Shown: positions 2,164-30,261, numbered from the stretch's first letter. The stretch is DNA of 32,000 bases from Desulfobulbus propionicus DSM 2032 (GCF_000186885.1 NC_014972.1:1830001-1862000), one strand, 5' to 3'. Translations and numbers: made by a program. The notes: a model not told the origin generated them from the letters alone.

Positions 2164-2856
2164 ATGGAAAACAAGACAGTACGGCCGATCCGGAAGAGTG
2201 AAAAGGGCGTGCCGGAGCCGACACTGCGTCGTTTGCCGTTGTATTACCGCCTCTTGAAACAGTTGCGCGAGGTCGGTCGCTCCGGCGTCTCCTGCACCAT
2301 GATCGGCACCGAACTCAAGCTCGATGCCACTCAGGTTCGCAAAGACATCGAGATGACCGGCACCGTGGGACGGCCGAAGGTGGGATACGATGTCAACGAG
2401 CTAATCTGCGCCATCGAAAAATTTCTCGGTTGGGACATCTCCACCGAGGCCTTTCTCGTCGGTGCGGGCAGCCTGGGGGAAGCGCTGATGGGCTACCCCG
2501 GCTTTGCCGAGTGCGGTCTTGATATCGTGGCCGCCTTCGATGTCGACCCGAACAAATGCCATCGGGTCATTCACGGCAAGCATGTCCGCCACATCAGCAA
2601 GCTGCCCGGCCTGATGCGCCGAATGCGCGTTCGTTTCGGGATTATCACTGTTCCCGCGTCCGAGGCCCAGCAGGCGGCCGACTTGCTGGTCGAGGGCGGG
2701 GTATTGGCCATTTGGAATTTTGCCCCGGCAAAGATACACGTGCCGGACCGTGTCATTGTGACCAACGAAGATCTGTACTGCTCGCTGGCCGTCCTGTCGC
2801 AAAAAATGACCAGGAAGCTGGCCGAGTCCCGTTCAAAAGGAGTATCCAAATCATGA
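2164..2856 (+). CDS. rex: Redox-sensing transcriptional repressor Rex
   Basis: The N-terminal winged-helix signature is present (PEPTLRRLPLYYRLLKQL...VSCTMIGTELKLDATQVRKDI). A Rossmann GxGxxG follows (LVGAGSLGEAL). I prefer the ATG at 2164 over the track GTG at 2155. The stop overlaps the next start (ATGA). Confidence 0.92.
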   Translation: MENKTVRPIRKSEKGVPEPTLRRLPLYYRLLKQLREVGRSGVSCTMIGTELKLDATQVRKDIEMTGTVGRPKVGYDVNELICAIEKFLGWDISTEAFLVGAGSLGEALMGYPGFAECGLDIVAAFDVDPNKCHRVIHGKHVRHISKLPGLMRRMRVRFGIITVPASEAQQAADLLVEGGVLAIWNFAPAKIHVPDRVIVTNEDLYCSLAVLSQKMTRKLAESRSKGVSKS

Positions 2857-3368
2857 CCACACTTGAGCAGGATGCCGTATCGCAAACGCCTGCGCGCCGT
2901 TACGAAAAAGTTTGCACGATCCTTGAACAGCACGACAACCAACCACAACGACTGATTCCTATCCTTCAAGCCGTCCAGGAGGAGTACCGCTATCTGCCCG
3001 AAGACGTGCTCACTTTTGTCGCCGCCGGCCTTGATGTGCCGCCGGCGCGTGTCTACGGCGTGGCTACCTTCTATTCCCACTTCGCCCTCGAACCCAAGGG
3101 CAAGTACTGCATCCGCTTGTGCGACGGCACCGCCTGCCATGTCAAACGTTCCATTCCCATCCTGGAGGCCATCTACAAGCGGCTGGGCCTGTCCAGCAAG
3201 CGCACCACCACCGAGGACATGCTGTTCACCGTGGAGACCGTCGCTTGTCTCGGCGCCTGCGGCCTGGCGCCGGTGGTGGTGATCAACGAGGAGGTGCATG
3301 GCCAGATGACGCCTGAAGCAGCCATTCAACTCATCAACGAGATCGAGGAGCGGGAGAAGGTATCATGA
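2853..3368 (+). CDS. hydC: [FeFe]-hydrogenase small electron-transfer subunit, NuoE-like thioredoxin-like [2Fe-2S] protein (HydC/HndA type)
   Basis: The start is Met100 of track ORF 2556..3368 (MTTLEQD...). The NuoE pattern is present: CDGTAC...CLGAC (Cx4C...Cx3C) and VATFYSHF. ATGA overlaps occur at both ends. Confidence 0.9.
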   Translation: MTTLEQDAVSQTPARRYEKVCTILEQHDNQPQRLIPILQAVQEEYRYLPEDVLTFVAAGLDVPPARVYGVATFYSHFALEPKGKYCIRLCDGTACHVKRSIPILEAIYKRLGLSSKRTTTEDMLFTVETVACLGACGLAPVVVINEEVHGQMTPEAAIQLINEIEEREKVS

Positions 3369-5266
3369 ACACCATGCAACAAACAGTGAATAATGCCGAC
3401 CCGTTGATGGGTGCCCAACGACGGGTGGTGATCTGCGCCGGCACCGGCTGCGTCGCCAACGGCGCCATGAAGGTCCATGCCGCCTTTCAGCAGCGGATGG
3501 CCGAGAAGAATCTACCCTTTGTCCTCGAACTCCGGGAAGAAAACGACAATAGCGGCAAGACCGCCTTCACCCGCAGCGGCTGTCAGGGGTTCTGTCAGAT
3601 GGGGCCGCTGGTGACGGTCCTGCCGGAGAACATCCTCTACACCCAGGTCAAACCGGCCGATATCGACGAAATCATCGAGACCAGCCTGATCGGCGGCGGG
3701 GTCGTCGAGCGGCTGTTGTACAGCGAGCCAGGCAACGGGCACGCGTGCAAGGGCACCGACGACATCCCCTTCTACACCCGCCAGCAGCGGTTCGTGCTCG
3801 GCGACTGCGGCACCATCGATCCGGAAAGCATTGACGAATACCTGCGCAACGGCGGCTATGAGGCGGCCAAGAAGGCTTTTCTGCAGATGTCGCCCGAGGC
3901 GATCTGCACCGAGATCTCCGAATCCGGCCTGCGCGGCCGAGGCGGCGGCGGCTTTCCCACCGGCCGCAAGTGGGAGGCGGCCCGCCGTCAGGCAGGAGAC
4001 AAGAAGTATGTCATCTGTAACGCCGACGAGGGCGACCCCGGTGCGTTCATGAACCGCAGCGTCATGGAGGGCAACCCCCACAGCGTCATCGAAGGTCTGA
4101 TGATCGCCGCCCGGGCCATCGGCGCCGACGAGACCCTGGTCTATGTGCGCGCCGAGTATCCGTTGGCGGTCGAACGCATGCGGCGTGCGGTCAAGGATGC
4201 CACCGCCCGTGGCATTCTCGGCGAAAACGTCTTTGGTTCCGGACTCAACATCAGCTGCGAGATCATGGAAGGGGCGGGTGCCTTTGTCTGCGGCGAGGAG
4301 ACGGCGATGATCGCCTCCATCGAGGGGCAGCGCGGCATGCCCCGGCCCAAGCCGCCGTTTCCGGCGCAAAGCGGTTTGTGGGGCAAGCCGACCATCATCA
4401 ACAACGTCGAGACCCTCGCCCACGCGGTACGCATTGTCCGCGAAGGGGCCATCCGTTTCCGCCAACTGGGCACCCCTGGTTCCCCGGGCACCAAGACTTT
4501 TGCCCTCACCGGCCATGTGGCCAACACCGGTCTGATCGAGGTGCCGTTTGGCACCACCCTGCGGGAGATCGTCCACAACATCGGCGGCGGCGTCACCAAG
4601 AGTGACGGCAGCATCGATCCTACCGGGTTCAAGGCGGTGCAGATCGGCGGGCCTTCGGGCGGCTGTCTGACCCAGGAGCACCTCGATCTGCCCATGGATT
4701 TCGACTCCTTGCGCACCGTGGGCGCCATGGTGGGCAGCGGCGGCCTGGTGGCCATGAACCAGGACACCTGCATGGTGTCGGTGGCCCGGTTCTTCATGGA
4801 GTTCACCCAGCGCGAGAGCTGCGGCAAGTGCGTGCTCTGCCGGGAGGGTACCCGCCAGATGCTGGCCCTGATGGACGACATCATCGAGGGGCGGGCCGAC
4901 GAGACCACCCTGCCGCTGCTCAGGGAACTGGCCGTGGCGGTGCAGAAGGGCTCGCTGTGCGGCCTGGGCAAGACCGCGCCCAATCCGGTGCTCTCCACCC
5001 TGCGTCATTTTCCGGAAGAGTACGAGGCTCATGTCCGCGACAAGGTCTGTCCGGCCGGTCAGTGCAAGGCCCTACTCAAGCCGTGGATCAATGCCGAGAA
5101 GTGCAAGGGCTGCGGCAAGTGCGCCAAGAAATGCCCGGTGGAGGCGATCAGCGGCGAACTCAAACAGCCGCATGTGATCGATCAGGACAAGTGTATCAAG
5201 TGCGGGGCCTGCCTGCAGTCCTGCAAATTCGGGGCAGTCGAGGGATTGCAAGGAGGTCAGGCATGA
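3365..5266 (+). CDS. hydB: [FeFe]-hydrogenase flavoprotein subunit, NuoF-like (HydB/HndC type)
   Basis: The N-terminal Trx-like domain has CAGTGC...CQGFC. The NuoF FMN/NADH region has [14 protein letters not shown] and a [11 protein letters not shown]-type segment. A [4Fe-4S] motif is [10 protein letters not shown]...C. The C-terminus has 2x CxxCxxCxxxCP ([23 protein letters not shown]). Confidence 0.95.
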
Positions 5267-7314
5267 TGAAGACGAAAACCGCCGCCCTCACCATTGACGG
5301 CCGCAAGGTGGCCATCGAGGGCGAGAAGAACCTGTTGGAGCTGGTGCGCAAGGCGGGCATCGACCTGCCCACCTTCTGTTATCACTCCGACCTGAGCGTT
5401 TACGGCGCCTGCCGCCTCTGTCTGGTCGACGTCGAGGGCCGCGGCATTCTCGGCGCCTGTTCGACCCCGCCGGAGCCGGGGTTGGTGGTGCGCACCAACA
5501 CCGAGGAGCTGCGCGAGATCCGCAAGATTTCAGTGGAACTGCTCCTGGCCAATCACGACCGGGAGTGCACCAGCTGCGTGCGCAGCGGCTCCTGTCAGTT
5601 GCAGGACATCGCCCGCCGGCTGGGGATCACCAAGATCCGCTACCGCTCCATCCACCAGCCCAAACCGGTGGATACCTCCAGTCCGTCGCTGATCCGTGAT
5701 CCCAACAAGTGCGTGCTCTGCGGCGACTGTGTCCGCTTCTGCGATGAGATTCAGAGTATCGGCGCCATCGATTTCGCTTTCCGGGGTCACGATGCCATGG
5801 TGCTGCCTGCCTTTGGCCATGATCTCGGCACCACCGAGTGCGTCAACTGCGGTCAGTGTGCCTCGGTCTGCCCCACCGGCGCCCTGGCACCGGCCTCGGA
5901 GATCGATGCGGTGTGGAAGGCGATCCACGATCCCAACACCGTGGTGGTGGCTCAGATCGCCCCGGCGGTGCGGGTGGCCATCGGCGAGCAGTTCGGTCTG
6001 GAGTACGGGCTCAACACCACCGGCCAGGTGGTGGCGGCCATGAAGCGGATGGGGTTTAACATCGTCTACGACACCAGCTTCACCGCCGACCTCACCGTGG
6101 TCGAGGAGGCGGGTGAGTTCATGGCCCGCAAGACCAACGGCGAGCGATTGCCGCTGTTCACCAGCTGTTGCCCGGGCTGGGTCAAGTTTGCCGAGCAGTA
6201 TTTCCCGCAGCTCTTGGGTAACCTCAGCTCCTGCCGTTCGCCGCAGCAGATGATGGGGTCCATGGTCAAGCACACCCTGCCGGCGCAGCTCGGTCGGGAG
6301 CGCAAGGATGTGGTCATGGTGTCGATCATGCCCTGCACGGCCAAGAAGTTCGAGGCCAAACGGCCGGAGTTCAAGACCGGTGGCTCGCCGGACGTGGATT
6401 TCGTCCTCACCACCCAGGAACTGGCGAGGATGATCGAGGAGTCGGGTCTGAGCCTCAACAAGCTCAATCCGGCCAGCTTCGACATGCCCATGGGTTTCAA
6501 GACCGGTGCCGGGGTCATCTTCGGCAACTCCGGCGGCGTCACCGAGGCAGTGCTGCGTTATGCGGTGGGCAAGATCACCGGCCAGAACCCGGTCGATCCT
6601 GAGTTCGAGGAGATCCGCGGCGAAGAGTCGCTACGCGTCATCCGCACCGAGGTCGGCGGCCTGGAGCTGAAACTGGCCATTGTCCACGGCCTGGGCAAGG
6701 CCCGCGAGGTGATGCACCAGATTCTCGACGGCTCGCTGATCGTCGATCTGGTCGAGGTCATGGCCTGTCCGGGCGGCTGCATCGGCGGCGCCGGCCAGCC
6801 GGTGGGCCGCGACATCGCCGAACGGCGGCGGGCGCGTACCGAATGGCTGTACAACACCGACCGGTTGCTCGATCTGCACTGCTCGCAGGAGAACCACTTC
6901 GTGAACGAGTGCTATCAGAAGTACTTGGGCGAACCGGGCAGTCGCGAGTCCCATCGTCTGCTCCATACCCACTACCACCACCGCCGCCGCACCGGCAGCG
7001 AGGAACTGGCCCTGGCCAAGGCCAAGGAGAGCGGCGACGGCGTGCTGACCGTGCGGGTCTGCGCCGGCACCGGCTGCTTTCTGCGCAACTCCCAGGCCAT
7101 TATCCAGGGCCTGATGAAACATGTCGAGGCCAACGACCTCGACGACAAGGTCCAGGTGCAGGCTTCCTTCTGCTTCGAGATGTGCGGCGAGGGACCCAAT
7201 GTGGCGGTGGGCGACACCATCATCAACCACGCCACCCTGGATGTGGTGATCAACGCCGTCCATGCCGAACTGGCACAGATGGCCTCGGGCCAGATGCAGG
7301 CCGACGCCTGCTGA
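5263..7314 (+). CDS. hydA: [FeFe]-hydrogenase catalytic subunit with N-terminal [2Fe-2S]/[4Fe-4S] ferredoxin domains and a C-terminal thioredoxin-like [2Fe-2S] domain
   Basis: The start is Met146 of track ORF 4828..7314 ([13 protein letters not shown]), overlapping the hydB stop. All three canonical H-cluster motifs are present: TSCCPGW, MPCTAKKFEA and EVMACPGGCIGGAGQP. The C-terminal tail has CAGTGC...CFEMC. Confidence 0.95.
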   Translation: MMKTKTAALTIDGRKVAIEGEKNLLELVRKAGIDLPTFCYHSDLSVYGACRLCLVDVEGRGILGACSTPPEPGLVVRTNTEELREIRKISVELLLANHDRECTSCVRSGSCQLQDIARRLGITKIRYRSIHQPKPVDTSSPSLIRDPNKCVLCGDCVRFCDEIQSIGAIDFAFRGHDAMVLPAFGHDLGTTECVNCGQCASVCPTGALAPASEIDAVWKAIHDPNTVVVAQIAPAVRVAIGEQFGLEYGLNTTGQVVAAMKRMGFNIVYDTSFTADLTVVEEAGEFMARKTNGERLPLFTSCCPGWVKFAEQYFPQLLGNLSSCRSPQQMMGSMVKHTLPAQLGRERKDVVMVSIMPCTAKKFEAKRPEFKTGGSPDVDFVLTTQELARMIEESGLSLNKLNPASFDMPMGFKTGAGVIFGNSGGVTEAVLRYAVGKITGQNPVDPEFEEIRGEESLRVIRTEVGGLELKLAIVHGLGKAREVMHQILDGSLIVDLVEVMACPGGCIGGAGQPVGRDIAERRRARTEWLYNTDRLLDLHCSQENHFVNECYQKYLGEPGSRESHRLLHTHYHHRRRTGSEELALAKAKESGDGVLTVRVCAGTGCFLRNSQAIIQGLMKHVEANDLDDKVQVQASFCFEMCGEGPNVAVGDTIINHATLDVVINAVHAELAQMASGQMQADAC

Positions 7315-7546: not shown

Positions 7547-7670
7547 TGTCGATTCGCTCCCCGTCCTTCTGATTTTCCCTTGGCCGCCCCCTTAGTCCGT
7601 CTTACTATTGGCCCATGATTGCCTCCATTTTCGTTCTTCACCTCTCTTTTCCCTTCCGAGAGTAACCGGT

Positions 7671-9089
7671 ATGGCCACGACCCGACCCGAAACCGATTCC
7701 CTCGGCACGCGCGAGGTCCCTGCCGCACCCCTGTGGGGAATTCATACCCTCAGGGCCCTGGAGAATTTCCCGCTCACCGGCCGACCGATCCACCCCCTGT
7801 TGGTCCGGTCCCTCGGCCTGGTCAAGCTGGCCGCGGCCCAGACCAATCACCGGCTGGGCGCCTGGAGCGACGATGACGACAAAGCCTCTGCCATCCTGGC
7901 CGCCTGCACCGAGATGGCCGAGGGCGGCTTAGGATCGGCCATCGTGGTCGATGCCCTCCAGGGAGGGGCCGGCACCAGCGCCAACATGAATGTCAACGAG
8001 GTGCTGGCCAACCGGGCCCTGGAACTGCTGGGCTGTGGTCGGGGTGAGTACACCCGCGTCAATCCCCTCGATGACCTCAACCTCCACCAGTCGACCAACG
8101 ATGTCTTTCCCACCGCCCTGAAAATCGCGGCCTTGCTCTCGCTCGACCGGCTGGAACAGCGGGTGGTGGCCCTGCAGGAGGCGCTACAGGAGCAGGAGCA
8201 GCGGTGGGCCCATGTGGTCAAGGTGGGCCGCACCGAAATGCAGGACGCGGTGCTGATCACCGTGGGTCGCGGCTTCGGCGCCTATGCCGAGGCCATCAAT
8301 CGCGACCGCTGGCGCATCTCCAAATGCCGGGAGCGGCTGCGGGTGGTCAACCTCGGCGGTACCGCCGTGGGCACCGGTCTGGCCGCGCCGCGCCGCTATA
8401 TCTTCGAGGTTACCGAGGCCCTGCGCCAGCTCACCGGGCTCAGTCTGGCCCGGGCCGAGAACCTGGTCGAGGCCACCCAGAATGTGGATGTCTTTGTCGA
8501 GGTCTCGGGTATCCTCAAGGCCCATGCCGCCAGCCTGTTGAAAATCTGCACCGATCTGCGTCTGCTCAGTTCCGGCCCGGACGCCGGTCTGGCCGAGATC
8601 CGCTTGCCTGCGCGTCAGGCCGGTTCCTCGATCATGCCGGGCAAGGTCAACCCGGTGATCCCCGAGGCGGTCAGTCAGGCGGCCATGCTGGTGATCGGCA
8701 ACGACACGACCCTGACCCTGGCCTGCGCCTCGGGCAGCCTGGAACTCAATCCCTTTTTGCCGCTGGTGGCCCTGACCCTGCTCGACAACCTCGACCTGCT
8801 CGCCCAGGCTGACGACATCCTCTGTCGCCACTGCATAGTCGGCATCAAGGTCGACGAGGCGCGCTGCGCCCGTCAGGTGGAAAACTCCACCGCCTCGGCC
8901 ACGGCCCTGCTGCCGGCCATCGGCCATGAACGGGCCGCGGAGATCGCGCGCAAGGCGGCGCACACCGGCACCAGTGTCCGTGAGCTGGCCCGCGAGGCCG
9001 GGATCAGCGACGTCCAGTTCGATCAACTCACCAGCGCCACCGCGGTCTGCCGCTTAGGCTTTGTCCCTCCCTCCACCGAAAAACGATAA
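7671..9089 (+). CDS. Aspartate ammonia-lyase / class II fumarase superfamily protein (aspartase-like), embedded in the hydrogenase maturation operon
   Basis: The start is Met22 of track ORF 7608..9089 (MATTRPETDSLGTREVPAAPLWGIHTLRALENF), which parallels the E. coli AspA N-terminus as I recall it. Conserved segments are GGAGTSANMNVNEVLAN, HQSTNDVFPTA, and the fumarate-lyase signature/SS loop GSSIMPGKVNPV. Confidence 0.88.
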   Translation: MATTRPETDSLGTREVPAAPLWGIHTLRALENFPLTGRPIHPLLVRSLGLVKLAAAQTNHRLGAWSDDDDKASAILAACTEMAEGGLGSAIVVDALQGGAGTSANMNVNEVLANRALELLGCGRGEYTRVNPLDDLNLHQSTNDVFPTALKIAALLSLDRLEQRVVALQEALQEQEQRWAHVVKVGRTEMQDAVLITVGRGFGAYAEAINRDRWRISKCRERLRVVNLGGTAVGTGLAAPRRYIFEVTEALRQLTGLSLARAENLVEATQNVDVFVEVSGILKAHAASLLKICTDLRLLSSGPDAGLAEIRLPARQAGSSIMPGKVNPVIPEAVSQAAMLVIGNDTTLTLACASGSLELNPFLPLVALTLLDNLDLLAQADDILCRHCIVGIKVDEARCARQVENSTASATALLPAIGHERAAEIARKAAHTGTSVRELAREAGISDVQFDQLTSATAVCRLGFVPPSTEKR

Positions 9090-9093
9090 CATC

Positions 9094-10344
9094 ATGTCGC
9101 AATCCGCACCCAAGGGCCTCCGCCTCCATATCGGCCTCTTTGGCCGCCGCAATGTCGGCAAGTCGAGTCTGCTCAACGCCATTACCCGCCAGCAGGTGGC
9201 CATCGTCTCCAACGTGGCCGGTACCACCACTGATCCGGTGGAAAAGCCGATGGAGCTGCTGCCGCTCGGGCCGGTGCTGTTCATCGATACCGCCGGCGTG
9301 GACGATGTCGGCGCGCTGGGCGAGATGCGCATCGCCCGCACCCGCGCGGTGTTCGACCGCACCGACCTGGGCATCCTCGTCGCGGCCGGCGGCGAGTGGG
9401 GCTCATTTGAAACCGAGTTGCTCGCCGCCCTGACCGCGCGCCAGGTCCCGGTGCTGGTGGTGATGAACAAGCTCGATCAGGGCCGCGCCAGCGACACCCT
9501 GACGGCCGAGCTGGCTGCCAAAAAGATCCCGCTGGTGCATACCGCCGCCCTCAACGGCGAGGGCATCGCCGAATTGAAACAGGCCATTGTCGCCCAGACC
9601 CCGGCCGATTTCCTCACCAGTCCGGCCATCATCTCCGATCTGGTCGGCCCCGGGGAGTTGGCGGTACTGGTGGTACCGATCGACAAGGAAGCGCCCAAGG
9701 GACGGCTGATCCTGCCCCAGGTACAGACCATCCGTGACCTGCTCGACGGCGATGCCATGAGCCTGGTGGTCAAGGAACGCGAACTGCGTCATGCCCTGGA
9801 CCAGCTCACATCGCCCCCCAAGTTGGTGGTGACCGACTCGCAGGCCTTTCTCAAGGTGGCCGCCGACGTGCCGCCCGAGGTCAAGCTGACCAGCTTCTCC
9901 ATCCTTTTTTCCCGCTGCAAGGGCGATCTGCTCACCCAGGTGGAAGGGGCCCTGGCCATTGACCGGTTGCAGCCCGGCGACCGGGTGCTGATGGCCGAGG
10001 CCTGCGCCCATCATCCCATCGGCGAGGATATCGGCCGGGTCAAGATTCCCCGTTGGCTGACCCAGTATGTCGGCGGCCAACTCGCGTTCACCCATGTCCA
10101 GGGCCATGATTTCCCGCCCGATCTGCACGAATACCAGTTGGTGATCCAGTGCGGCTCCTGCATGCTCAACCGTCGCGAGGTGCTCAGCCGCATCCTTCGC
10201 TGCCGCGAGGCCGGCGTGCCGATCACCAACTACGGTTTGGCGATTTCCTACAGCCTGGGCATCTTCACCCGAGCCCTGAGCCCCTTTCCCGCGGCCCTGG
10301 AACTCCTGCACAGTGCGGATCAGGGACGGTGCGAAGGGCGATGA
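9094..10344 (+). CDS. hydF: [FeFe]-hydrogenase maturation GTPase HydF
   Basis: The start is Met12 of the track ORF. GTPase motifs are GRRNVGKSS (G1), DTAG (G3) and NKLD (G4). The C-terminal cluster-binding region is CAH-x45-QCGSC. Confidence 0.88.
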   Translation: MSQSAPKGLRLHIGLFGRRNVGKSSLLNAITRQQVAIVSNVAGTTTDPVEKPMELLPLGPVLFIDTAGVDDVGALGEMRIARTRAVFDRTDLGILVAAGGEWGSFETELLAALTARQVPVLVVMNKLDQGRASDTLTAELAAKKIPLVHTAALNGEGIAELKQAIVAQTPADFLTSPAIISDLVGPGELAVLVVPIDKEAPKGRLILPQVQTIRDLLDGDAMSLVVKERELRHALDQLTSPPKLVVTDSQAFLKVAADVPPEVKLTSFSILFSRCKGDLLTQVEGALAIDRLQPGDRVLMAEACAHHPIGEDIGRVKIPRWLTQYVGGQLAFTHVQGHDFPPDLHEYQLVIQCGSCMLNRREVLSRILRCREAGVPITNYGLAISYSLGIFTRALSPFPAALELLHSADQGRCEGR

Positions 10345-11660
10345 CCATGGATCGCAAAGAAATTCTTCATTGGTTGCGCTGCGACGACCCGAAGGAACTG
10401 GAGCAGCTGTGGCGCCTGGCCGACCGGGCCCGGCAACAGCACGTGGGCGAGGCCGTGCACCTGCGCGGCCTGGTCGAGATCTCCAACTACTGCGCCCGTT
10501 CCTGCCACTATTGCGGGTTGCGCGCCCCCAACCGTCAGGTCAGCCGCTACCGCTTGAGCGCCGAGGAGATCCTCGACTGCGCCGATCAGGCGGTCCGGCT
10601 CGGGTATGGCACCCTGGTGCTGCAGTCGGGCGAGGACGACCGCATCGAGGCCGAGTGGCTGGCCAGCCTGCTGCGGCACATCAAGGCCACCACGCCGCTG
10701 GCCCTGACGCTGAGCCTGGGCGAGCGGAGCGAGGACGACCTGCGCATCTGGCGGGAGGCCGGGGCTGATCGCTACCTGCTGCGCTTTGAAACCTCGGACC
10801 GCGCCCTCTACCGGGCCATCCACCCGGACCGGGGCGCCCGGGTGTCGGATCGGCTGGCCCTCCTCCGCCAGTTGAAGAGCCTGGGCTATGAGACCGGCAG
10901 CGGCGTCATGGTGGGGATTCCAGGGCAGAGTTATGCAATCCTGGCCGACGATATCCTCTTGTTTCGCGAGCTCGATCTCGACATGATCGGCATCGGCCCC
11001 TTTATCGCCCATCCGGATACACCCCTGGGGCAGGCCGCCTCGCCCCTGCCCGGTGAGACGCAGGTGCCGCCCTCCATCGGCATGACCTGCAAGGCCGTGG
11101 CCCTGGCCCGGATCCTGCGGCCGGACGCCAACATTCCGGCCACCACCGCGGTGGCGGTCATGGATGCCTGGCAGGGGAGGGAACTGGCCCTGCGCTGCGG
11201 GGCCAACGTGATCATGCCCAACCTGACGCCGGCCCGGTTTCGCGAACACTACACCATCTATCCGGGCAAGGCGGACCGGATCGAGGCGGCCGAGCAGAGC
11301 GATCAACAGATTCGCAGCCAGATCAAGGCCATGGGCCGTGGCATCGGTTCGGGTCAGGGCGGACGGAAAAGTGGAACCCAAACGGAACCGGCCGCGCCCG
11401 CCACCCTGCGCATCGCCGTGTGCATGGGCAGCTCCTGTTTCTCCCGGGGCAACAACAGCCAGGCGATCGACACCCTGCGCCACTGTGTCGAGGATGCCGG
11501 GTTGGTGCCGGACATCTCCGGCCATCTGTGCGAAAACCTCTGCACCCAGGGGCCGAACATCACCATCGGCGAGACGATCTACTCCAACGTGCAGCCGTCC
11601 TGTTTCCCCGAACTGCTCAAACACCACCTCGCCAGCACCAAGGAGGGACGCGATGGATAG
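10341..11660 (+). CDS. hydE: [FeFe]-hydrogenase maturase HydE (radical SAM) fused to a C-terminal thioredoxin-like [2Fe-2S] ferredoxin domain
   Basis: The start is Met65 of track ORF 10149..11660 (MTMDRKEILHWL), with an ATGA overlap onto the hydF stop. The radical-SAM motif is ISNYCARSCHYCGLR. After a Gly/Pro-rich linker (GIGSGQGGRKSGTQTEPAAPA), an extra ~85 aa carries CMGSSC...CENLC (Cx4C...Cx3C). Confidence 0.88.
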   Translation: MTMDRKEILHWLRCDDPKELEQLWRLADRARQQHVGEAVHLRGLVEISNYCARSCHYCGLRAPNRQVSRYRLSAEEILDCADQAVRLGYGTLVLQSGEDDRIEAEWLASLLRHIKATTPLALTLSLGERSEDDLRIWREAGADRYLLRFETSDRALYRAIHPDRGARVSDRLALLRQLKSLGYETGSGVMVGIPGQSYAILADDILLFRELDLDMIGIGPFIAHPDTPLGQAASPLPGETQVPPSIGMTCKAVALARILRPDANIPATTAVAVMDAWQGRELALRCGANVIMPNLTPARFREHYTIYPGKADRIEAAEQSDQQIRSQIKAMGRGIGSGQGGRKSGTQTEPAAPATLRIAVCMGSSCFSRGNNSQAIDTLRHCVEDAGLVPDISGHLCENLCTQGPNITIGETIYSNVQPSCFPELLKHHLASTKEGRDG

Positions 11661-13392
11661 ACGCTCGCCCATCTATACCGAGAAACACGAGTGCCAGGAC
11701 TGCTATAAGTGCGTTCGCCAATGCCCGGTCAAGGCCATCCGGGTGCAGGATGCCTATGCCACCATTGTCGACGAGATGTGCGTGTACTGCGGCATTTGTG
11801 TCTCCATCTGCCCCAACACCGCCAAGCATGTGCGCAACGATTTGCCCCGGGCCCGCCAACTGGTCAAGCTGCCGCCCCGGGTGCTGGTCTCGCTCGCCCC
11901 CTCGTGGATCACCGAATTCCCCAACATCGAGGCCGGTCAGCTGATCGCCGCCCTCAAACGGCTCGGCTTTGCCGCTGTCTCCGAGACCGCACTCGGCGCC
12001 CAGCAGGTCAGCGCCCATGTGGCCGAGACGCTGCGCGAACAGCCGGGCCAGATCCTGCTCAGCTCGGCCTGCCCGACCGTGGTGGCCTATATTCAGAAGC
12101 ACCGGCCGCAGCTGGCCGGGGCCGTCACCGCGCTCCTCTCGCCCCTGCTGGCCCACTGCCGCATGCTCAAGCGCCACTATGGCGAAGAGAGCGCCATTGT
12201 TTTCATCGGCCCCTGCATCGCCAAGAAACTTGAGGCCGACGAACACCCGGACCTGCTCGATATCGCCCTGACCTTCGAGGATTTGCGCATCTGGATGGCG
12301 GCGGAGCGGATCGATCCCCGCGCCCTGACCCCGGCGACCGACGACCGGTTCGAGCCCCAGGCCGCCGAGGAGGGTGTGCTCTATCCGGTGGATGGCGGCA
12401 TGATCGCCGGCATCCGCGCCCACTGCAGCGTTGATGACGGTGCGTTCATGAGTTTTTCCGGCTTGGCGGCGGTGGAGAACGCCCTCGACGGGCTGGAGGA
12501 TCTGGACCCGATGCAGGGGTTGTTTCTGGAGTTGTTGGCCTGCGAGGGCGGCTGCATCAACGGCCCCAAGGTCACCCGGCCGGGCAGCACCGTGACCAAG
12601 CGGCAGCGGGTGCTGGCCCATGCCCGCTTCCCGGAGACGCAACCCGTGCCCCGACCGCCGGAGCTCGATATCCGCCGGTCTATCATGCCCCGGCCGCTCA
12701 GCCAGCCCACGCCCACCGAGACCCGCATCTCGGAAGTCCTGCGATCCATCGGCAAGCGCTCGATCGAGGACGAACTCAACTGCGGCGGTTGCGGCTACGA
12801 CTCCTGCCGCGAATTCGGCAAGGCCCTGATCGCCCAGCGGGCCGAGCGGGCCATGTGCGTCTCCTGGATGCGGCAGCTGGCCTTCAAGAAGGCCAACGTG
12901 CTCATCCACAAGATGCCCTCGGCCGTGGTGATCGTCGATGGCGACCTGCGGGTGCTGGAATGCAACGCCGCCTTTGTGGCCATCATCAACCACCTGCGTC
13001 CGGTGTCGCTGCCGGCGGAACTGGAGGGAACGTCGGTGGCCGAGCTGCTGCCCTTCCATAACCTCTTTGCCAGCGTGCTCAAGAACGACATGGATATCCT
13101 CGACCGGGATATCCGTTTCCTCGATACCATCCTCCACCTGTCCATCTTCACCATCGACCCGCACGCAGTGGTCGGCGCCATCCTCCAGGACATCACCCGA
13201 CCGGCGGTACAGAAGGAGCAGGTGATCCGGCGGGCCCGCGAGGTCATCCAGAAAAACCTGGCCACGGTGCAGAAGATCGCCTACCTGCTGGGCGAAAACG
13301 CGGCCGAATCCGAGGTCACCCTCAACAGCATCATCGAGTCGTTTTCGCCGGCCAAGATCGAAGGCGACGAGGGAGGCAGCCTTGGCGACTGA
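11653..13392 (+). CDS. hydS: Sensory-type [FeFe]-hydrogenase homologue (HydS-like): 2x[4Fe-4S] ferredoxin, degenerate H-domain, Cx2Cx4Cx16C motif and PAS domain
   Basis: The start is Met106 of track ORF 11338..13392 (MDRRSPIYTEKHECQDCYKCVRQCP), with an 8-nt overlap onto hydE. The H-cluster motifs are altered: SSACPTV (vs TSCCPxW), GPCIAKKLEA (vs MPCxxKxxE) and ELLACEGGCINGPKV (vs ExMxCxxGCxxGGGQP). CGGCGYDSC-x16-C lies at 12781-12858. A PAS-like tail follows (VVIVDGDLRVLECNAAF...ILQDITR). Confidence 0.85.
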   Translation: MDRRSPIYTEKHECQDCYKCVRQCPVKAIRVQDAYATIVDEMCVYCGICVSICPNTAKHVRNDLPRARQLVKLPPRVLVSLAPSWITEFPNIEAGQLIAALKRLGFAAVSETALGAQQVSAHVAETLREQPGQILLSSACPTVVAYIQKHRPQLAGAVTALLSPLLAHCRMLKRHYGEESAIVFIGPCIAKKLEADEHPDLLDIALTFEDLRIWMAAERIDPRALTPATDDRFEPQAAEEGVLYPVDGGMIAGIRAHCSVDDGAFMSFSGLAAVENALDGLEDLDPMQGLFLELLACEGGCINGPKVTRPGSTVTKRQRVLAHARFPETQPVPRPPELDIRRSIMPRPLSQPTPTETRISEVLRSIGKRSIEDELNCGGCGYDSCREFGKALIAQRAERAMCVSWMRQLAFKKANVLIHKMPSAVVIVDGDLRVLECNAAFVAIINHLRPVSLPAELEGTSVAELLPFHNLFASVLKNDMDILDRDIRFLDTILHLSIFTIDPHAVVGAILQDITRPAVQKEQVIRRAREVIQKNLATVQKIAYLLGENAAESEVTLNSIIESFSPAKIEGDEGGSLGD

Positions 13393-14563
13393 GACGGCCT
13401 TCATCGACGTCGACCATGCCCTGCGCTGCAAGCATCGCCAGTCGATCTGCGGTGATGTCTTTCTCAGTCATCGGATCAAGGAAGAGGGGCGGATCCTGGC
13501 GGTGCTTTCCGACGGCCTCGGTTCCGGGGTCAAGGCCTCGGTGTTGGCCAACCTCACCGCCGCCATGGCGCTCAAGTTCGCCTCCACCTGCACCGATCCC
13601 CGGGCGTGGGCGCGGTCGATCATGGATACCCTGCCGATCTGCGAGGTGCGCAAGATCAGTTACTCCACCTTCACCCTGATCGATCTCGACGAGAGCGGCG
13701 CCCTGCGCTTCATCGAACACGGCAACCCGCCGCTGGTGCTGCTGCGCGGCACGAGCGAGGTGGAGCTGCACCGGTCGCTGATCACCCTTGATCGGTGGAA
13801 GGATCGCCTGATCTATCACGGCCGGCTGCAACTGGCCATCGGCGACCGATTGCTCTGTTTTTCCGACGGCGTCACCCAATCGGGCATGGGACAACGGACC
13901 ATGCCGCTCGGCTGGACCCGGGAGGAGGCGGTGGCCTGCGCCCAGGAGCTGATCCGTGCCGATGCGGATATCTCCTCGCGGCGGCTGACCGCGGCGCTGA
14001 TGGAGCGGGCCCTGACCAACGACAGCGGCTGCGCCCGCGACGACACCAGCTGCGCGGTGATCCATTTCCGGGTGCCACGGCAGCTGTTGATCATGACCGG
14101 GCCGCCCTTTGCGCCGCAACGCGATTTCGAACTGGCACGGGCCGCCTCGACCTTTCCCGGCAAAAAGATCATCTGCGGCGGCACCACCGCGACCATCATC
14201 GGCCGCATTCTCCGCCGGCCGATCAGCGTCGATCTCACCCAGGCCGATACCGGCATGCCGCCGCCGGCGCGGATGGAGGGCATTGACCTGATCACCGAGG
14301 GGGCCTTGACCCTGGCCCACGTGGCCCAACTGCTGGCCACGGGCGTCACCGTCGAACGGCTGCCGAACAATCCGGCCGGGGACATCGTCCGTCTCATGTT
14401 CGGCAGCGATCTCATTCACTTTATCGTCGGCACCCGGATCAACGAGGCCCATCAGGACCCCAACACCCCGCAGGAACTCGATCTGCGCCGCAACATCGTC
14501 CGCCGCATCGTCTCGCTTCTTGAGGAAAAGTACCTCAACACCACGTCGGTCCGCTTTCTCTGA
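13382..14563 (+). CDS. PP2C/SpoIIE-family serine phosphatase with an uncharacterised ~160-aa C-terminal domain
   Basis: A TTG start at 13382 has a GGGAGG SD 5 nt upstream and overlaps hydS by 11 nt. There is no in-frame ATG before the catalytic domain. PP2C metal-site pattern: CGDVF, LSDGLGSGVKAS, FSDGVTQSG, ARDDTSCAV. I could not assign the C-terminal part (GKKIICGGTTATIIGR...). Confidence 0.8.
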   Translation: MATETAFIDVDHALRCKHRQSICGDVFLSHRIKEEGRILAVLSDGLGSGVKASVLANLTAAMALKFASTCTDPRAWARSIMDTLPICEVRKISYSTFTLIDLDESGALRFIEHGNPPLVLLRGTSEVELHRSLITLDRWKDRLIYHGRLQLAIGDRLLCFSDGVTQSGMGQRTMPLGWTREEAVACAQELIRADADISSRRLTAALMERALTNDSGCARDDTSCAVIHFRVPRQLLIMTGPPFAPQRDFELARAASTFPGKKIICGGTTATIIGRILRRPISVDLTQADTGMPPPARMEGIDLITEGALTLAHVAQLLATGVTVERLPNNPAGDIVRLMFGSDLIHFIVGTRINEAHQDPNTPQELDLRRNIVRRIVSLLEEKYLNTTSVRFL

Positions 14564-27889: not shown

Positions 27890-28408
27890 ATGGCCAACAC
27901 AGCTCAACCGCAGGAAGAACAGGCACGGGACCATGCCTTGGTGGTCTTTTGTCCGTCGGTCGAAAGCCTGGCCCCCCTGGCCGAGATCCTGGCCACGATG
28001 CTGCATGCGGGCGACGTCCTTCTGCTCCACGGCGAGCTGGGAGCGGGGAAAACCACCCTGACCCAATGGCTCGCCCAGGCACTGGGCGTGGACGAGTCGC
28101 AGTATGTGGCCAGCCCTTCCTTTGCCCTGATGCACGAATACCAGGGGCGGCTGCCGATCTTTCACATGGATCTGTACCGGCTCCGCGACGAGGACGATGT
28201 CGAGGCCGCCGGATTGCTTGATTGTTTCGAGCGGCAGGGGCTGTGCATCGTCGAGTGGCCGGACCGCCTCGGCACCTTGACCCCGGATGAGCGGCTTGAT
28301 ATTCTGTTGCAGCCTGCGGACTCCGGGGCCCGACGGATTACCCTGACGCCGTGGGGATTCGACTGGAATCAACGCATCCAGCGGATCGCCGCGCGCCTGG
28401 CCGCCTAA
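27890..28408 (+). CDS. tsaE: tRNA threonylcarbamoyladenosine (t6A) biosynthesis ATPase TsaE
   Basis: The P-loop is LHGELGAGKTTL, followed by SPSFALMHEY and HMDLYRL. The start is uncertain. I chose the ATG at 27890 because GAGG lies 8 nt upstream. Alternatives are 27842 (GTG) and 27851 (ATG). Confidence 0.82.
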   Translation: MANTAQPQEEQARDHALVVFCPSVESLAPLAEILATMLHAGDVLLLHGELGAGKTTLTQWLAQALGVDESQYVASPSFALMHEYQGRLPIFHMDLYRLRDEDDVEAAGLLDCFERQGLCIVEWPDRLGTLTPDERLDILLQPADSGARRITLTPWGFDWNQRIQRIAARLAA

Positions 28409-28494
28409 CCACCCAACCCGATGCCGCGATCGGATGCGGCTACGTTGCACGCATCGGTTCCTGCTCGATTAATCACCCATTCACGCACGAGTTC

Positions 28495-30261
28495 ATGAAG
28501 AAAAGAATCATCACCCTGCAGCCCTGCAGGAAACAGTACACTTATGATCAAGACAAGGCCTGCTCTCCGGAGGAAACCGTGGCCCGGTTTCAGGAGCGGC
28601 TCAAGGCGACCAATCTCGACGTGCTCAAGGAGATCCGCCGCATTGACAACGGCCGCCTCGATATTCCGGTCTATTTCAGCATCTGCGGCGAGGATGCCCG
28701 GCGAATCATCGGCAACAAAAAGCAGATGGGCAAGGGCTCGACCCCCGAGCAGTCGCGGGCCAGCGCCTGCATGGAGCTGGGCGAGCGGTTCAGTTTTTTC
28801 AGTTTTCTCAAAGAGGAGACCAACTTCATCACCGGCGACTATGCCGCCATGGAAGCGTCCGGGTATCCGGTGCTCCCGATCGAGGTTCTGCTTGATTCGG
28901 TCCACGACACCACGCTCTCGCCCGAGATCCTGCGGGTCATGCTCGCTGATCTGCCGTTGCAGTGGACCTGGGCCCTGCGGCTGTCGGACAACCATCCGCT
29001 GCTCGTGCCTTTTTCCTGGTTCTACGCCATCAACGAGTTCAACGGCCCCTCGGCTGGCAACACCTATGAAGAGGCGGTCATCCAGGGAATCAGTGAGGTG
29101 GTCGAGCGTCATGTCTGCGCCCTGATCACCCGCGACCGCATCCCGACCCCGCAGATCGATCCGGCCTCGATTACCGATCCGGTGGCCCTGGAATTGCTGG
29201 CCAAATTCCGCAGATGCGGCATCGAGGTCTTTCTCAATGATTTCTCCCTCGACACCGGTATCCCCACCATCGGTGCCCTAGCCTGGGATCCTGCCACCTT
29301 TCCCGAGCAGAGCGAGATCGTCTACACCGCCGGCACCACTCCGGATGCCAACAAGGCCTTGATTCGCGCCCTGACCGAGGTGGCCCAACTGGCCGGCGAT
29401 TTCAACAGCGGTGCCAACTACGTGGCCAGCGGCCTGCCCAAGCCGCTCAGTTTGGACGAGGTGGGCCATGTGGTGGCCAGCGGCCTGACCACCCGCCTCG
29501 AAACGGTGGTGGATCTTAAAGACACGGACATCTTCCAGGAAGTGCGCAACTGCGTGGCCGCCCTGCAACGCAGCAACCTGGAGGTGCTGGTCATCGACAC
29601 CACCCATCCGGAATTGCGGATTCCCGCCATCTACACCATCATTCCCGGTGCTCACTTCCGTGAACGGGCCATGGGCGGCAACGCGGCCCTGTTCGCCGCC
29701 AAACTGGCCTCGGAGCTGCTCGCGGGCGACCGGCTGGACGCCAAGCTGAAGGCCATGCAGGGACTGCTGCCCGAGGCCTACTACCTCCATTTCTACCGGG
29801 GGCGTCACCTCTACGACCAGGGGCTGACCGATGGGGCCCTGGTCTGTTTCGACCAGGCCCTGCAACTGGAACCCCGCCAGGAAGACCTGCCCTATCTTTA
29901 CTCCTATAAAGGGTCCTGCCTGCGCGACCTGGGCCGCTACGACGCGGCGATTGCCGCGCTGGAACAGGGTCTTGGCTATGACGAGGAGCGGCCGGACATC
30001 TACAACACCCTCGGCGTCTGCTGCTACAAGATTGGCCGCTACGACCGGGCGGTCGACCATTTCCGGCGGGCGGTGGAGCTCAATCCGGCCTCGGCCATCG
30101 ACTACGCCAACCTGGCGCTCAATCTGGAGCATCTGGGCGAGCGCGAGCAGGCGATCTGCAACTACGAGATCGCCCTGTCCCAGGATACCTCCATCGCCTT
30201 TGCCGCCGAGCGTCTTGCCGGCCTGCTGGCGGAGGCGGCAAGCGGAGGGGAGCGCGCGTGA
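28495..30261 (+). CDS. YcaO-domain protein with C-terminal TPR repeats (stand-alone, non-TOMM-like architecture)
   Basis: The start is Met49 of track ORF 28351..30261 (MKKRIITLQ). The YcaO ATP-binding region is GPSAGNTYEEAVIQGISEVVERH, with MELGERFS upstream. The C-terminal ~150 aa contain TPR-like repeats (YYLHFYRGRHLYDQGLTDGALVCFDQALQLEP, YSYKGSCLRDLGRYDAAIAALEQGL, YNTLGVCCYKIGRYDRAVDHFRRAVELNP). Confidence 0.83.
   Translation: MKKRIITLQPCRKQYTYDQDKACSPEETVARFQERLKATNLDVLKEIRRIDNGRLDIPVYFSICGEDARRIIGNKKQMGKGSTPEQSRASACMELGERFSFFSFLKEETNFITGDYAAMEASGYPVLPIEVLLDSVHDTTLSPEILRVMLADLPLQWTWALRLSDNHPLLVPFSWFYAINEFNGPSAGNTYEEAVIQGISEVVERHVCALITRDRIPTPQIDPASITDPVALELLAKFRRCGIEVFLNDFSLDTGIPTIGALAWDPATFPEQSEIVYTAGTTPDANKALIRALTEVAQLAGDFNSGANYVASGLPKPLSLDEVGHVVASGLTTRLETVVDLKDTDIFQEVRNCVAALQRSNLEVLVIDTTHPELRIPAIYTIIPGAHFRERAMGGNAALFAAKLASELLAGDRLDAKLKAMQGLLPEAYYLHFYRGRHLYDQGLTDGALVCFDQALQLEPRQEDLPYLYSYKGSCLRDLGRYDAAIAALEQGLGYDEERPDIYNTLGVCCYKIGRYDRAVDHFRRAVELNPASAIDYANLALNLEHLGEREQAICNYEIALSQDTSIAFAAERLAGLLAEAASGGERA

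Follow-up and report, generated by a model that had tools for sequence, protein, structure and literature searches.

Does the second [FeFe] hydrogenase paralogue encoded in a 32,000-nt stretch of Desulfobulbus propionicus DSM 2032 (GCF_000186885.1, NC_014972.1:1830001-1862000; hereafter the window, with positions counted from its first letter) serve as a catalyst, like HydA encoded upstream, or as a sensor? A preliminary description, made from the sequence alone, held that the product of this gene, here called hydS, carries sensor-type substitutions in all three H-cluster motifs, that a Cx2Cx4Cx16C motif and a PAS-like domain follow, as in T. maritima HydS (TmHydS), and that the protein binds an H-cluster and works as an H2/redox sensor. 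Judged by published criteria and proxy identities, HydS is very probably a Group C (M2f) [FeFe] hydrogenase of subgroup C3 ("phosphatase-linked"), a putative H2 sensor of the type known from TmHydS.

H-cluster motifs of HydS

The gene and the features on which the first part of the argument rests are the following:

11653..13392, + strand: hydS, encoding a putative sensory-type [FeFe] hydrogenase of Group C (M2f), 579 amino acids (aa); open reading frame (ORF) with a Shine-Dalgarno sequence and Pfam matches to Fe_hyd_lg_C, FeS and Fer4
11692..11811, + strand: two CxxCxxCxxxC motifs (aa 14-24 and 43-53), an N-terminal 2x[4Fe-4S] ferredoxin-like domain with Fer4 matches
12061..12081, + strand: H-cluster motif 1, SSACPTV (aa 137-143)
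12208..12237, + strand: H-cluster motif 2, GPCIAKKLEA (aa 186-195)
12529..12573, + strand: H-cluster motif 3, ELLACEGGCINGPKV (aa 293-307)

The ATG start codon lies 6 nt 3' of AAGGAGG, with an 8-nt overlap between the gene and the end of hydE. In a Pfam scan, HydS was matched by Fe_hyd_lg_C (PF02906; E=1e-43), by FeS (PF04060; E=2e-8), and by members of the Fer4 family. It has the H-domain and the four H-cluster cysteines in motifs 1-3 that mark the [FeFe] hydrogenase superfamily, preceded by the N-terminal [4Fe-4S] motifs (aa 14-24 and 43-53) that belong to the definition of Group C.

Translation returned the three variant motifs exactly where they had been placed in the preliminary description, the GGGQP tail of motif 3 being changed to NGPKV. 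The catalytic HydA said there to lie ∼6 kb upstream is 5.9 kb away (5263-7314) and carries the canonical motifs TSCCPGW (6160-6180), MPCTAKKFEA, and EVMACPGGCIGGAGQP. The observation had been made to depend on the homology of the SSACP segment to motif 1. BLASTP aligned HydS with HydA of the window over the ferredoxin domain and the H-domain (27% identity, E=2e-21), and HMMER aligned it with hydrogenase chains from the PDB, in both cases with all three motifs in register. Adjacent cysteines occur nowhere in the whole protein; hence, no canonical motif 1 is concealed elsewhere. With this homology confirmed, the observation stands.

In CpI numbering, taken from the alignment to PDB entry 6GLY (the CpI C299A variant), the residues correspond as follows:

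CpI E279: V123 in HydS (V or A across the family)
CpI C299: A139, proton relay lost
CpI C300: C140, H-cluster ligand
CpI W303: V143
CpI S319: T159
CpI P324: P164, retained
CpI M353: G186
CpI C355: C188, H-cluster ligand
CpI K358: K191, retained
CpI M497: L295
CpI C499: C297, H-cluster ligand
CpI C503: C301, H-cluster ligand

The alignment is gapped around E282 and R286, a region that is variable in the family. At the level of sequence, HydS retains a complete H-cluster site (C140, C188, C297, C301, and K191), and the Group A proton-transfer pathway, together with both methionines next to the [2Fe] site, is replaced (C299→A, E279→V/A, M353→G, M497→L). The Group A signatures (TSCCPxW, MPCxxKKxE, and ExMACxGGCxxGGGQP, with the C299, E279/E282/S319/R286 pathway) are thus not those of HydS, which scored 84 bits against the group A model TIGR02512 (cutoff 406). 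No model of the NCBIfam scan captured HydS, the best being TIGR04105 (group B1) with 188 bits against a 450-bit cutoff. In Group C, C299 and M353/M497 are not conserved, and Gly, Ser, or Thr is found at M353; A139, G186, and L295 conform to this pattern. Among sensory sequences, the commonest residues are Ala at C299 (∼43%) and Gly at M353 (∼51%; PMC10055695).

It had also been argued that the alanine at the relay position speaks against efficient catalysis. The substitution of C299 by A139 is real, but as an explanation it is by itself too simple because the activity of TmHydS far exceeds that of CpI C299A, and because the back-mutation A131C made TmHydS less active (PMC10055695, PMC10407848).

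Conservation among orthologues

A search of 5.8 billion proteins retrieved 6261 clusters related to HydS, the best matches coming from Desulfobulbus (80-89% identity) and nearly all being 575-590 aa long. Conservation was assessed in an alignment of 49 orthologues with 59-88% identity. Residues A139, C140, P141, P187, C188, K191, K192, E194, E293, L295, A296, C297, G299, G300, and C301 were invariant (49/49), as were P164, the LAPS segment, all eight cysteines of the N-terminal CxxCxxCxxxC pair, and the four C-terminal cysteines C377, C380, C385, and C402 (49/49). Position 186 was Gly in 46 of the 49 and Ser in the other three; T159 (the CpI S319 position) and Y244 were conserved. Read from this alignment, the sensor-type substitutions are a selected family signature, as the variant motif residues are invariant or nearly so.

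That hydS is a pseudogene or a decaying paralogue was considered and rejected, given the constancy of the variant motif residues across the 49 orthologues and a family of more than 6000 clusters.

Two further cysteines, C169 (12157-12159) and C258 (12424-12426), lie outside every cluster motif. Within the HydS clade, C169 shows at least 90% conservation and C258 does not vary; the latter, which sits in a loop modelled with low confidence, is not conserved in a relative from Thermotogota (see below).

Changes in the second sphere of the [2Fe] site (A139, G186, L295, and V143) would also fit a protein without the [2Fe] subcluster, that is, a redox sensor with Fe-S clusters only, like eukaryotic Nar1/NARF, which would respond to ferredoxin or the cellular redox state and not to H2; the phrase "H2/redox sensor" is compatible with such a protein. 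This is quite improbable, however, as the four H-cluster cysteines, K191 (which provides a hydrogen bond to CN-), P164, and the LAPS segment are all invariant, and as translation of hydS is coupled to that of hydE and the gene is located downstream of hydF. Moreover, TmHydS (A/G/S at the C299, M353, and M497 positions) and the Group D enzyme TamHydS (A/S/L) still take up [2Fe]adt and show normal H-cluster signatures in Fourier-transform infrared spectra (PMC10055695, PMC8163306).

C-terminal Cys motif, PAS fold, and helical tail

The putative H2 sensors of Group C (M2f) are defined by two N-terminal [4Fe-4S] motifs, an H-domain from which the proton pathway of Group A is missing, a Cx2Cx4Cx16C motif, and a PAS domain (PMC8163306, PMC10055695, PMC10407848). 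The C-terminal part of HydS contains the following features:

12781..12858, + strand: Cx2Cx4Cx16C motif (C377, C380, C385, C402; aa 377-402), a C-terminal [4Fe-4S] site typical of Groups C and D; PF04060, E=2e-8
12898..13191, + strand: PAS-fold domain, ∼aa 416-513, indicated by sub-threshold-to-threshold PAS matches, PAS_8 matches of orthologues and a predicted five-stranded sheet with helices
13213..13341, + strand: C-terminal helical hairpin, aa 521-563, with an IAxLLGExAAE segment, from DSSP of the model; conserved in the Thermotogota locus (L006)

The Cys motif thus lies behind the H-domain, as in Group C, and has exactly the coordinates given in the preliminary description. The PAS assignment is the weakest element of the observation, yet it holds. 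In the Pfam scan of full-length HydS, PAS remained below threshold (E ∼3e-3); when the C-terminal part was scanned alone, PAS_4 reached 23.2 bits against a gathering cutoff of 23.1, and PAS_8 was matched by 33 of the 49 orthologues (best E=2.6e-6). An AlphaFold2 model, the check that had been proposed for both folds, showed a beta-beta-helices-beta-beta-beta unit, that is, a PAS-like topology, at residues 424-513 (predicted local distance difference test score, pLDDT, 81-89) and a confident H-domain (pLDDT 84-96); the metal-dependent N-terminal domain was poorly modelled. A Foldseek search of the PDB with this model retrieved [FeFe] hydrogenases only (lowest E=5e-16); enzymes of the sensory type were not among the matches, and the sequence search of the PDB likewise gave catalytic-type hydrogenases only. 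No solved PAS structure matching the PAS region was retrieved by Foldseek because hydrogenase matches occupied the list. In the helical hairpin, I542, A543, L545, L546, G547, E548, A550, A551, and E554 are invariant among the orthologues; it is possibly an output or dimerisation element.

A PAS domain located behind the Cys motif also discriminates Group C from Group D (M2e). A Group D enzyme of the TamHydS type would have the Cx2Cx4Cx16C motif in common with HydS, and TamHydS agrees with it in Leu at M497 and Ala at C299 (PMC8163306). However, Group D lacks the PAS domain and has Ser or Thr at M353 (PMC8163306), whereas HydS has a PAS fold, Gly186 (Gly in 46/49 orthologues), and a PP2C phosphatase partner, as in C3. 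Decided by these two published criteria, the PAS domain and the residue at M353, membership in Group D has a negligible probability.

Phosphatase partner and thioredoxin-like module

HydDB splits Group C into C1-C3, of which C3 is designated "phosphatase-linked (putative)" (PMC5037454, Table 1), and C3 genes adjoin those of Group A3 bifurcating hydrogenases (PMC11406978). Two features flank the H-cluster protein of the window:

13382..14563, + strand: SpoIIE/PP2C-type Ser/Thr phosphatase, 393 aa; PF07228, E=3e-17; 11-nt overlap with the hydS stop
11382..11660, + strand: thioredoxin-like [2Fe-2S] module (Cx4C...Cx3C), fused to the HydE C-terminus; PF01257, E=4e-4

The co-transcribed Ser/Thr (PP2C) phosphatase expected of C3 is the PF07228 gene overlapping hydS, and the Group A3 bifurcating hydrogenase nearby is hydCBA at 2556-7314. 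On each testable point, HydS therefore agrees with the published description of Group C and C3 and departs from those of Groups A and D. The model of the phosphatase (pLDDT 82) has SpoIIE and RsbU as its nearest structures. Its C-terminal alpha/beta domain (∼aa 234-393, window 14072-14560; pLDDT 85-95) was without a match in Pfam at E<=10 and has invariant CGGTT, TEG, and VGTRINxAHQxP segments, which are kept from Thermotogota to Desulfobulbus; it may be a docking or regulatory domain for HydS.

The pairing recurs in distant lineages. A hydS-PP2C pair (phosphatase of 392-395 aa) was found behind hydrogenase and maturase genes in Phycisphaerales (L004), in Bacillota (L007), and in a metagenomic lineage (L009); in one 617-kb contig (L008) it stands alone, the other hyd genes not being nearby. 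At each locus inspected (Desulfobacterota, Planctomycetota, Bacillota, and Thermotogota), the PP2C gene adjoins hydS. Association with bifurcating hydCBA was seen in the window, L004, L006, and L009, not in L008.

The Thermotogota locus (L006), part of a metagenome-assembled genome, was retrieved from genome contigs via degenerate back-translation of a TmHydS peptide, PFITTACPVVVN, deduced from published primers (PMC10055695 supplement); the published mutagenesis-primer sequence of TmHydS (same supplement) had no exact match in the genome contigs searched. Its gene order is hydS-PP2C-hydC-hydB-hydA-rex. The encoded HydS is 31% identical to that of the window from the first Cys motif through the C-terminal helices, the PP2C 32% over its full length, and Ala, Gly, Tyr, and Ser are found at the four positions mutated in TmHydS. 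Because the residue numbering is off by 3-6 positions, this protein is a TmHydS-like proxy and not TmHydS.

The thioredoxin-like module is located directly 5' of hydS throughout the loci inspected. In other lineages it is a separate ORF of 87-93 aa (L004, 8145-8423; L007, 1860-2123; L008, 9723-10004; L009, 9741-10004), and the free-standing forms are 34-48% identical to the module of the window, with the four cysteines invariant (CMGSSC...GHLCExxC). The fusion to HydE recurs in three independent assemblies of the window organism, with an identical 439-aa product. The module thus probably belongs with HydS and not with maturation. Neither this module nor the C-terminal domain of the phosphatase was found described in the literature searched.

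Tentatively, and with the odds rather against it, the sensor may be viewed as a conserved three-protein module of thioredoxin-like [2Fe-2S] ferredoxin, HydS, and PP2C with its unannotated C-terminal domain, in which the ferredoxin would be an electron sink setting the H-cluster's redox poise, and the phosphatase domain a docking or allosteric site for the PAS domain and helical tail of HydS. The trio offers concrete partners; the thioredoxin-like protein and the PP2C domain may be the missing parts of a signalling module, and defining them could make the signalling mechanism of Group C testable.

Gene cluster around hydS

hydS is embedded in a + strand cluster with the order rex-hydCBA-aspA-hydF-hydE-hydS-PP2C; its other members are the following:

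2165..2856, + strand: rex, first gene of the cluster, encoding a redox-sensing repressor; Put_DNA-bind_N and CoA_binding domains, ATG at 2165
2556-3368, + strand: hydC (NuoE-like), bifurcating hydrogenase subunit, from the domain scan
3365-5266, + strand: hydB (NuoF-like), bifurcating hydrogenase subunit, from the domain scan
5263..7314, + strand: hydA, catalytic [FeFe] hydrogenase of Group A (bifurcating type); motifs canonical
7608-9089, + strand: aspA, aspartate ammonia-lyase; NF008909, 607 bits
9061..10344, + strand: hydF, maturase GTPase with the Pfam domains HydF_dimer and HydF_tetramer
10341..11660, + strand: hydE, maturase, 439 aa including the fused thioredoxin-like module; TIGR03956, 316 bits, above cutoff

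HydA scored above the cutoff of TIGR02512 (group A) and, with 722 bits, slightly under the 765-bit cutoff of NF040763. Its C-terminus (7078-7314) is a further thioredoxin-like [2Fe-2S] domain (PF01257), so that the cluster has four such modules, at the HydB N-terminus, the HydA and HydE C-termini, and in HydC. Behind the phosphatase gene follows a convergent peptidase gene. hydG is absent from the window and must therefore be encoded elsewhere in the genome; in L004 and L009 it is located directly 3' of hydA.

In the AT-rich stretch 5' of rex (2037-2090) lies a strong sigma-70-like promoter (TTGACA, 17 nt, TG-CATAAT), and directly behind it a perfect palindrome of 22 bp, TATCGAGAATTAATTCTCGATA, a candidate operator that differs from the canonical Rex box. 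The position of aspA between hydA and hydF, with a comparable hydG-aspA-hydF arrangement in L009, suggests a link with H-cluster maturation; possibly, and speculatively, the enzyme supplies nitrogen for the azadithiolate bridge. Unrelated to the hydrogenase cluster, the window also encodes a YcaO cyclodehydratase fused to TPR repeats (28351-30261).

Proposed mechanism and its alternatives

By analogy with the biochemistry of TmHydS and TamHydS, the HydE and HydF maturases encoded just upstream would install the [2Fe] subcluster in HydS, which would then turn over H2 slowly and irreversibly and stabilise a one-electron-reduced state of the H-cluster across a wide range of potentials. The redox or conformational state of HydS would be the readout of the H2 partial pressure. 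From the gene order and the SpoIIE/RsbU-like fold, we infer that the PAS domain and the C-terminal helices could relay this state to the translationally coupled phosphatase, which would alter the phosphorylation of a Ser/Thr-phosphoprotein encoded elsewhere. Rex is a sensor of NADH/NAD+, and together with it, the output of the phosphatase would adjust how strongly the neighbouring bifurcating hydCBA is expressed. The thioredoxin-like [2Fe-2S] module is probably the electron acceptor or donor of HydS and would enable the sensor to be reset.

The view that HydS is an H-cluster-binding H2/redox sensor is the accepted one for such proteins and is supported, at the level of sequence, by its ligands, its architecture, and the PP2C gene; for the sensing itself, several points weigh against it. 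"Sensor" is a proposal for the family as a whole, and to our knowledge, a signalling output has been biochemically demonstrated in no member. No STAS, RsbW, kinase, or other obvious phosphatase substrate was found among the ORFs of the window, and the canonical Rex operator (TTGTGAAN6TTCACAA, at most 3 mismatches) has no occurrence there. The assignment to Group C and C3 follows published criteria and proxy identities (31% to the full-length Thermotogota HydS; 27% to HydA of the window, in the N-terminal part and the H-domain). The C-terminal cluster of TamHydS gave no response to H2 (PMC13104023). At the M497 position HydS has Leu, invariant in its clade and as in TamHydS, where TmHydS has Ser267. 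The S267M exchange in TmHydS lowered the potential of [4Fe-4S]H by 50 mV and reduced activity (PMC10055695). Because Ser267 raises this potential in TmHydS, redox tuning may differ in HydS of the Desulfobulbus type.

Finally, TmHydS and TamHydS keep measurable H2 turnover, both oxidation and evolution (PMC10055695, PMC8163306), which leaves room for a catalytic role of HydS. It would then be a slow but truly catalytic hydrogenase, with H2 and the thioredoxin-like [2Fe-2S] protein as its partners in electron exchange, and the PAS domain and the phosphatase would control the enzyme instead of being controlled by it. The alternative proton pathway in TamHydS (PMC10407848), the conservation of T159 (CpI S319 position) and Y244, and the occurrence of the thioredoxin-like module directly 5' of hydS even at L008, without nearby hyd genes, are in line with such an enzyme. 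Nevertheless, it is unlikely: characterised relatives display low activity and irreversible electrochemistry (PMC13104023), hydrophobic residues replace the canonical proton path, and the gene is constantly coupled to that of a signalling-type phosphatase, usually beside a bona fide catalytic hydrogenase.

A putative H2 sensor of subgroup C3 thus remains the preferred reading. As such, HydS is a routine member of a described, widely sequenced class with thousands of sequenced members, and little of it is new, as HydDB already has a place in Group C for sensory-type [FeFe] hydrogenases in which these substitutions occur together with the additional Cys motif, PAS, and PP2C. What annotation gains is a candidate for the regulator of a bifurcating hydrogenase's operon; in a Desulfobulbus-like organism living as a sulfate reducer or syntroph, H2 sensing would bear on interspecies hydrogen transfer.

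Comparison with known systems

The likeness to TmHydS claimed in the preliminary description (extra Cys motif, PAS) agrees with the published architecture (PMC8163306, PMC10055695) and extends beyond it, the comparison being based on the Thermotogota relative (∼31% identity) and on published residues of TmHydS. The domain order is identical (2x[4Fe-4S], H-domain, Cx2Cx4Cx16C, PAS); A131 (C299) and G177 (M353) of TmHydS are A139 and G186 here (PMC10055695); both have Tyr at the Y223 position (Y244 here) and the GPCIAKK core of motif 2. The close Thermotogota relative likewise has a PP2C partner, with hydCBA and rex in one operon. In contrast, the protein of the window is ∼50 aa longer, and hydS, which lies upstream of hydC in the Thermotogota locus of the TmHydS type, is located downstream of maturase genes here.

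With TamHydS of Group D, HydS has in common the N-terminal clusters, Cx2Cx4Cx16C, Ala at C299, and Leu at M497; in both, the proton pathway of Group A is lost and a bifurcating hydrogenase is encoded nearby (PMC8163306).

The regulatory [NiFe] hydrogenase HoxBC-HoxJ of Ralstonia/Cupriavidus (Group 2b) is a functional analogue only. It is slow and CO-tolerant, has a PAS-containing partner, and controls hydrogenase genes via phosphorylation (PMC8163306, PMC5707799); its fold and metal site are unrelated, and its output is a histidine kinase with a response regulator, not a PP2C phosphatase.

Two further systems, likened here by their published description, are those of HfsB in Thermoanaerobacterium saccharolyticum and of HydS in Ruminococcus albus; in both, a PAS-containing hydrogenase-like protein is accompanied by a PP2C, in R. 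albus also by Rex (PMC5707799, PMC6776011). Unlike the window, these clusters also contain a kinase or histidine-kinase-like gene (Ser/Thr kinase, HfsD). Fermentation is rewired when hfsB is deleted (PMC5707799), and in R. albus the H2 level regulates the HydS cluster (PMC6776011). Both the genetics of hfsB and the transcriptomics of R. albus point to a regulatory role and thus lend indirect support to signalling by this type of protein.

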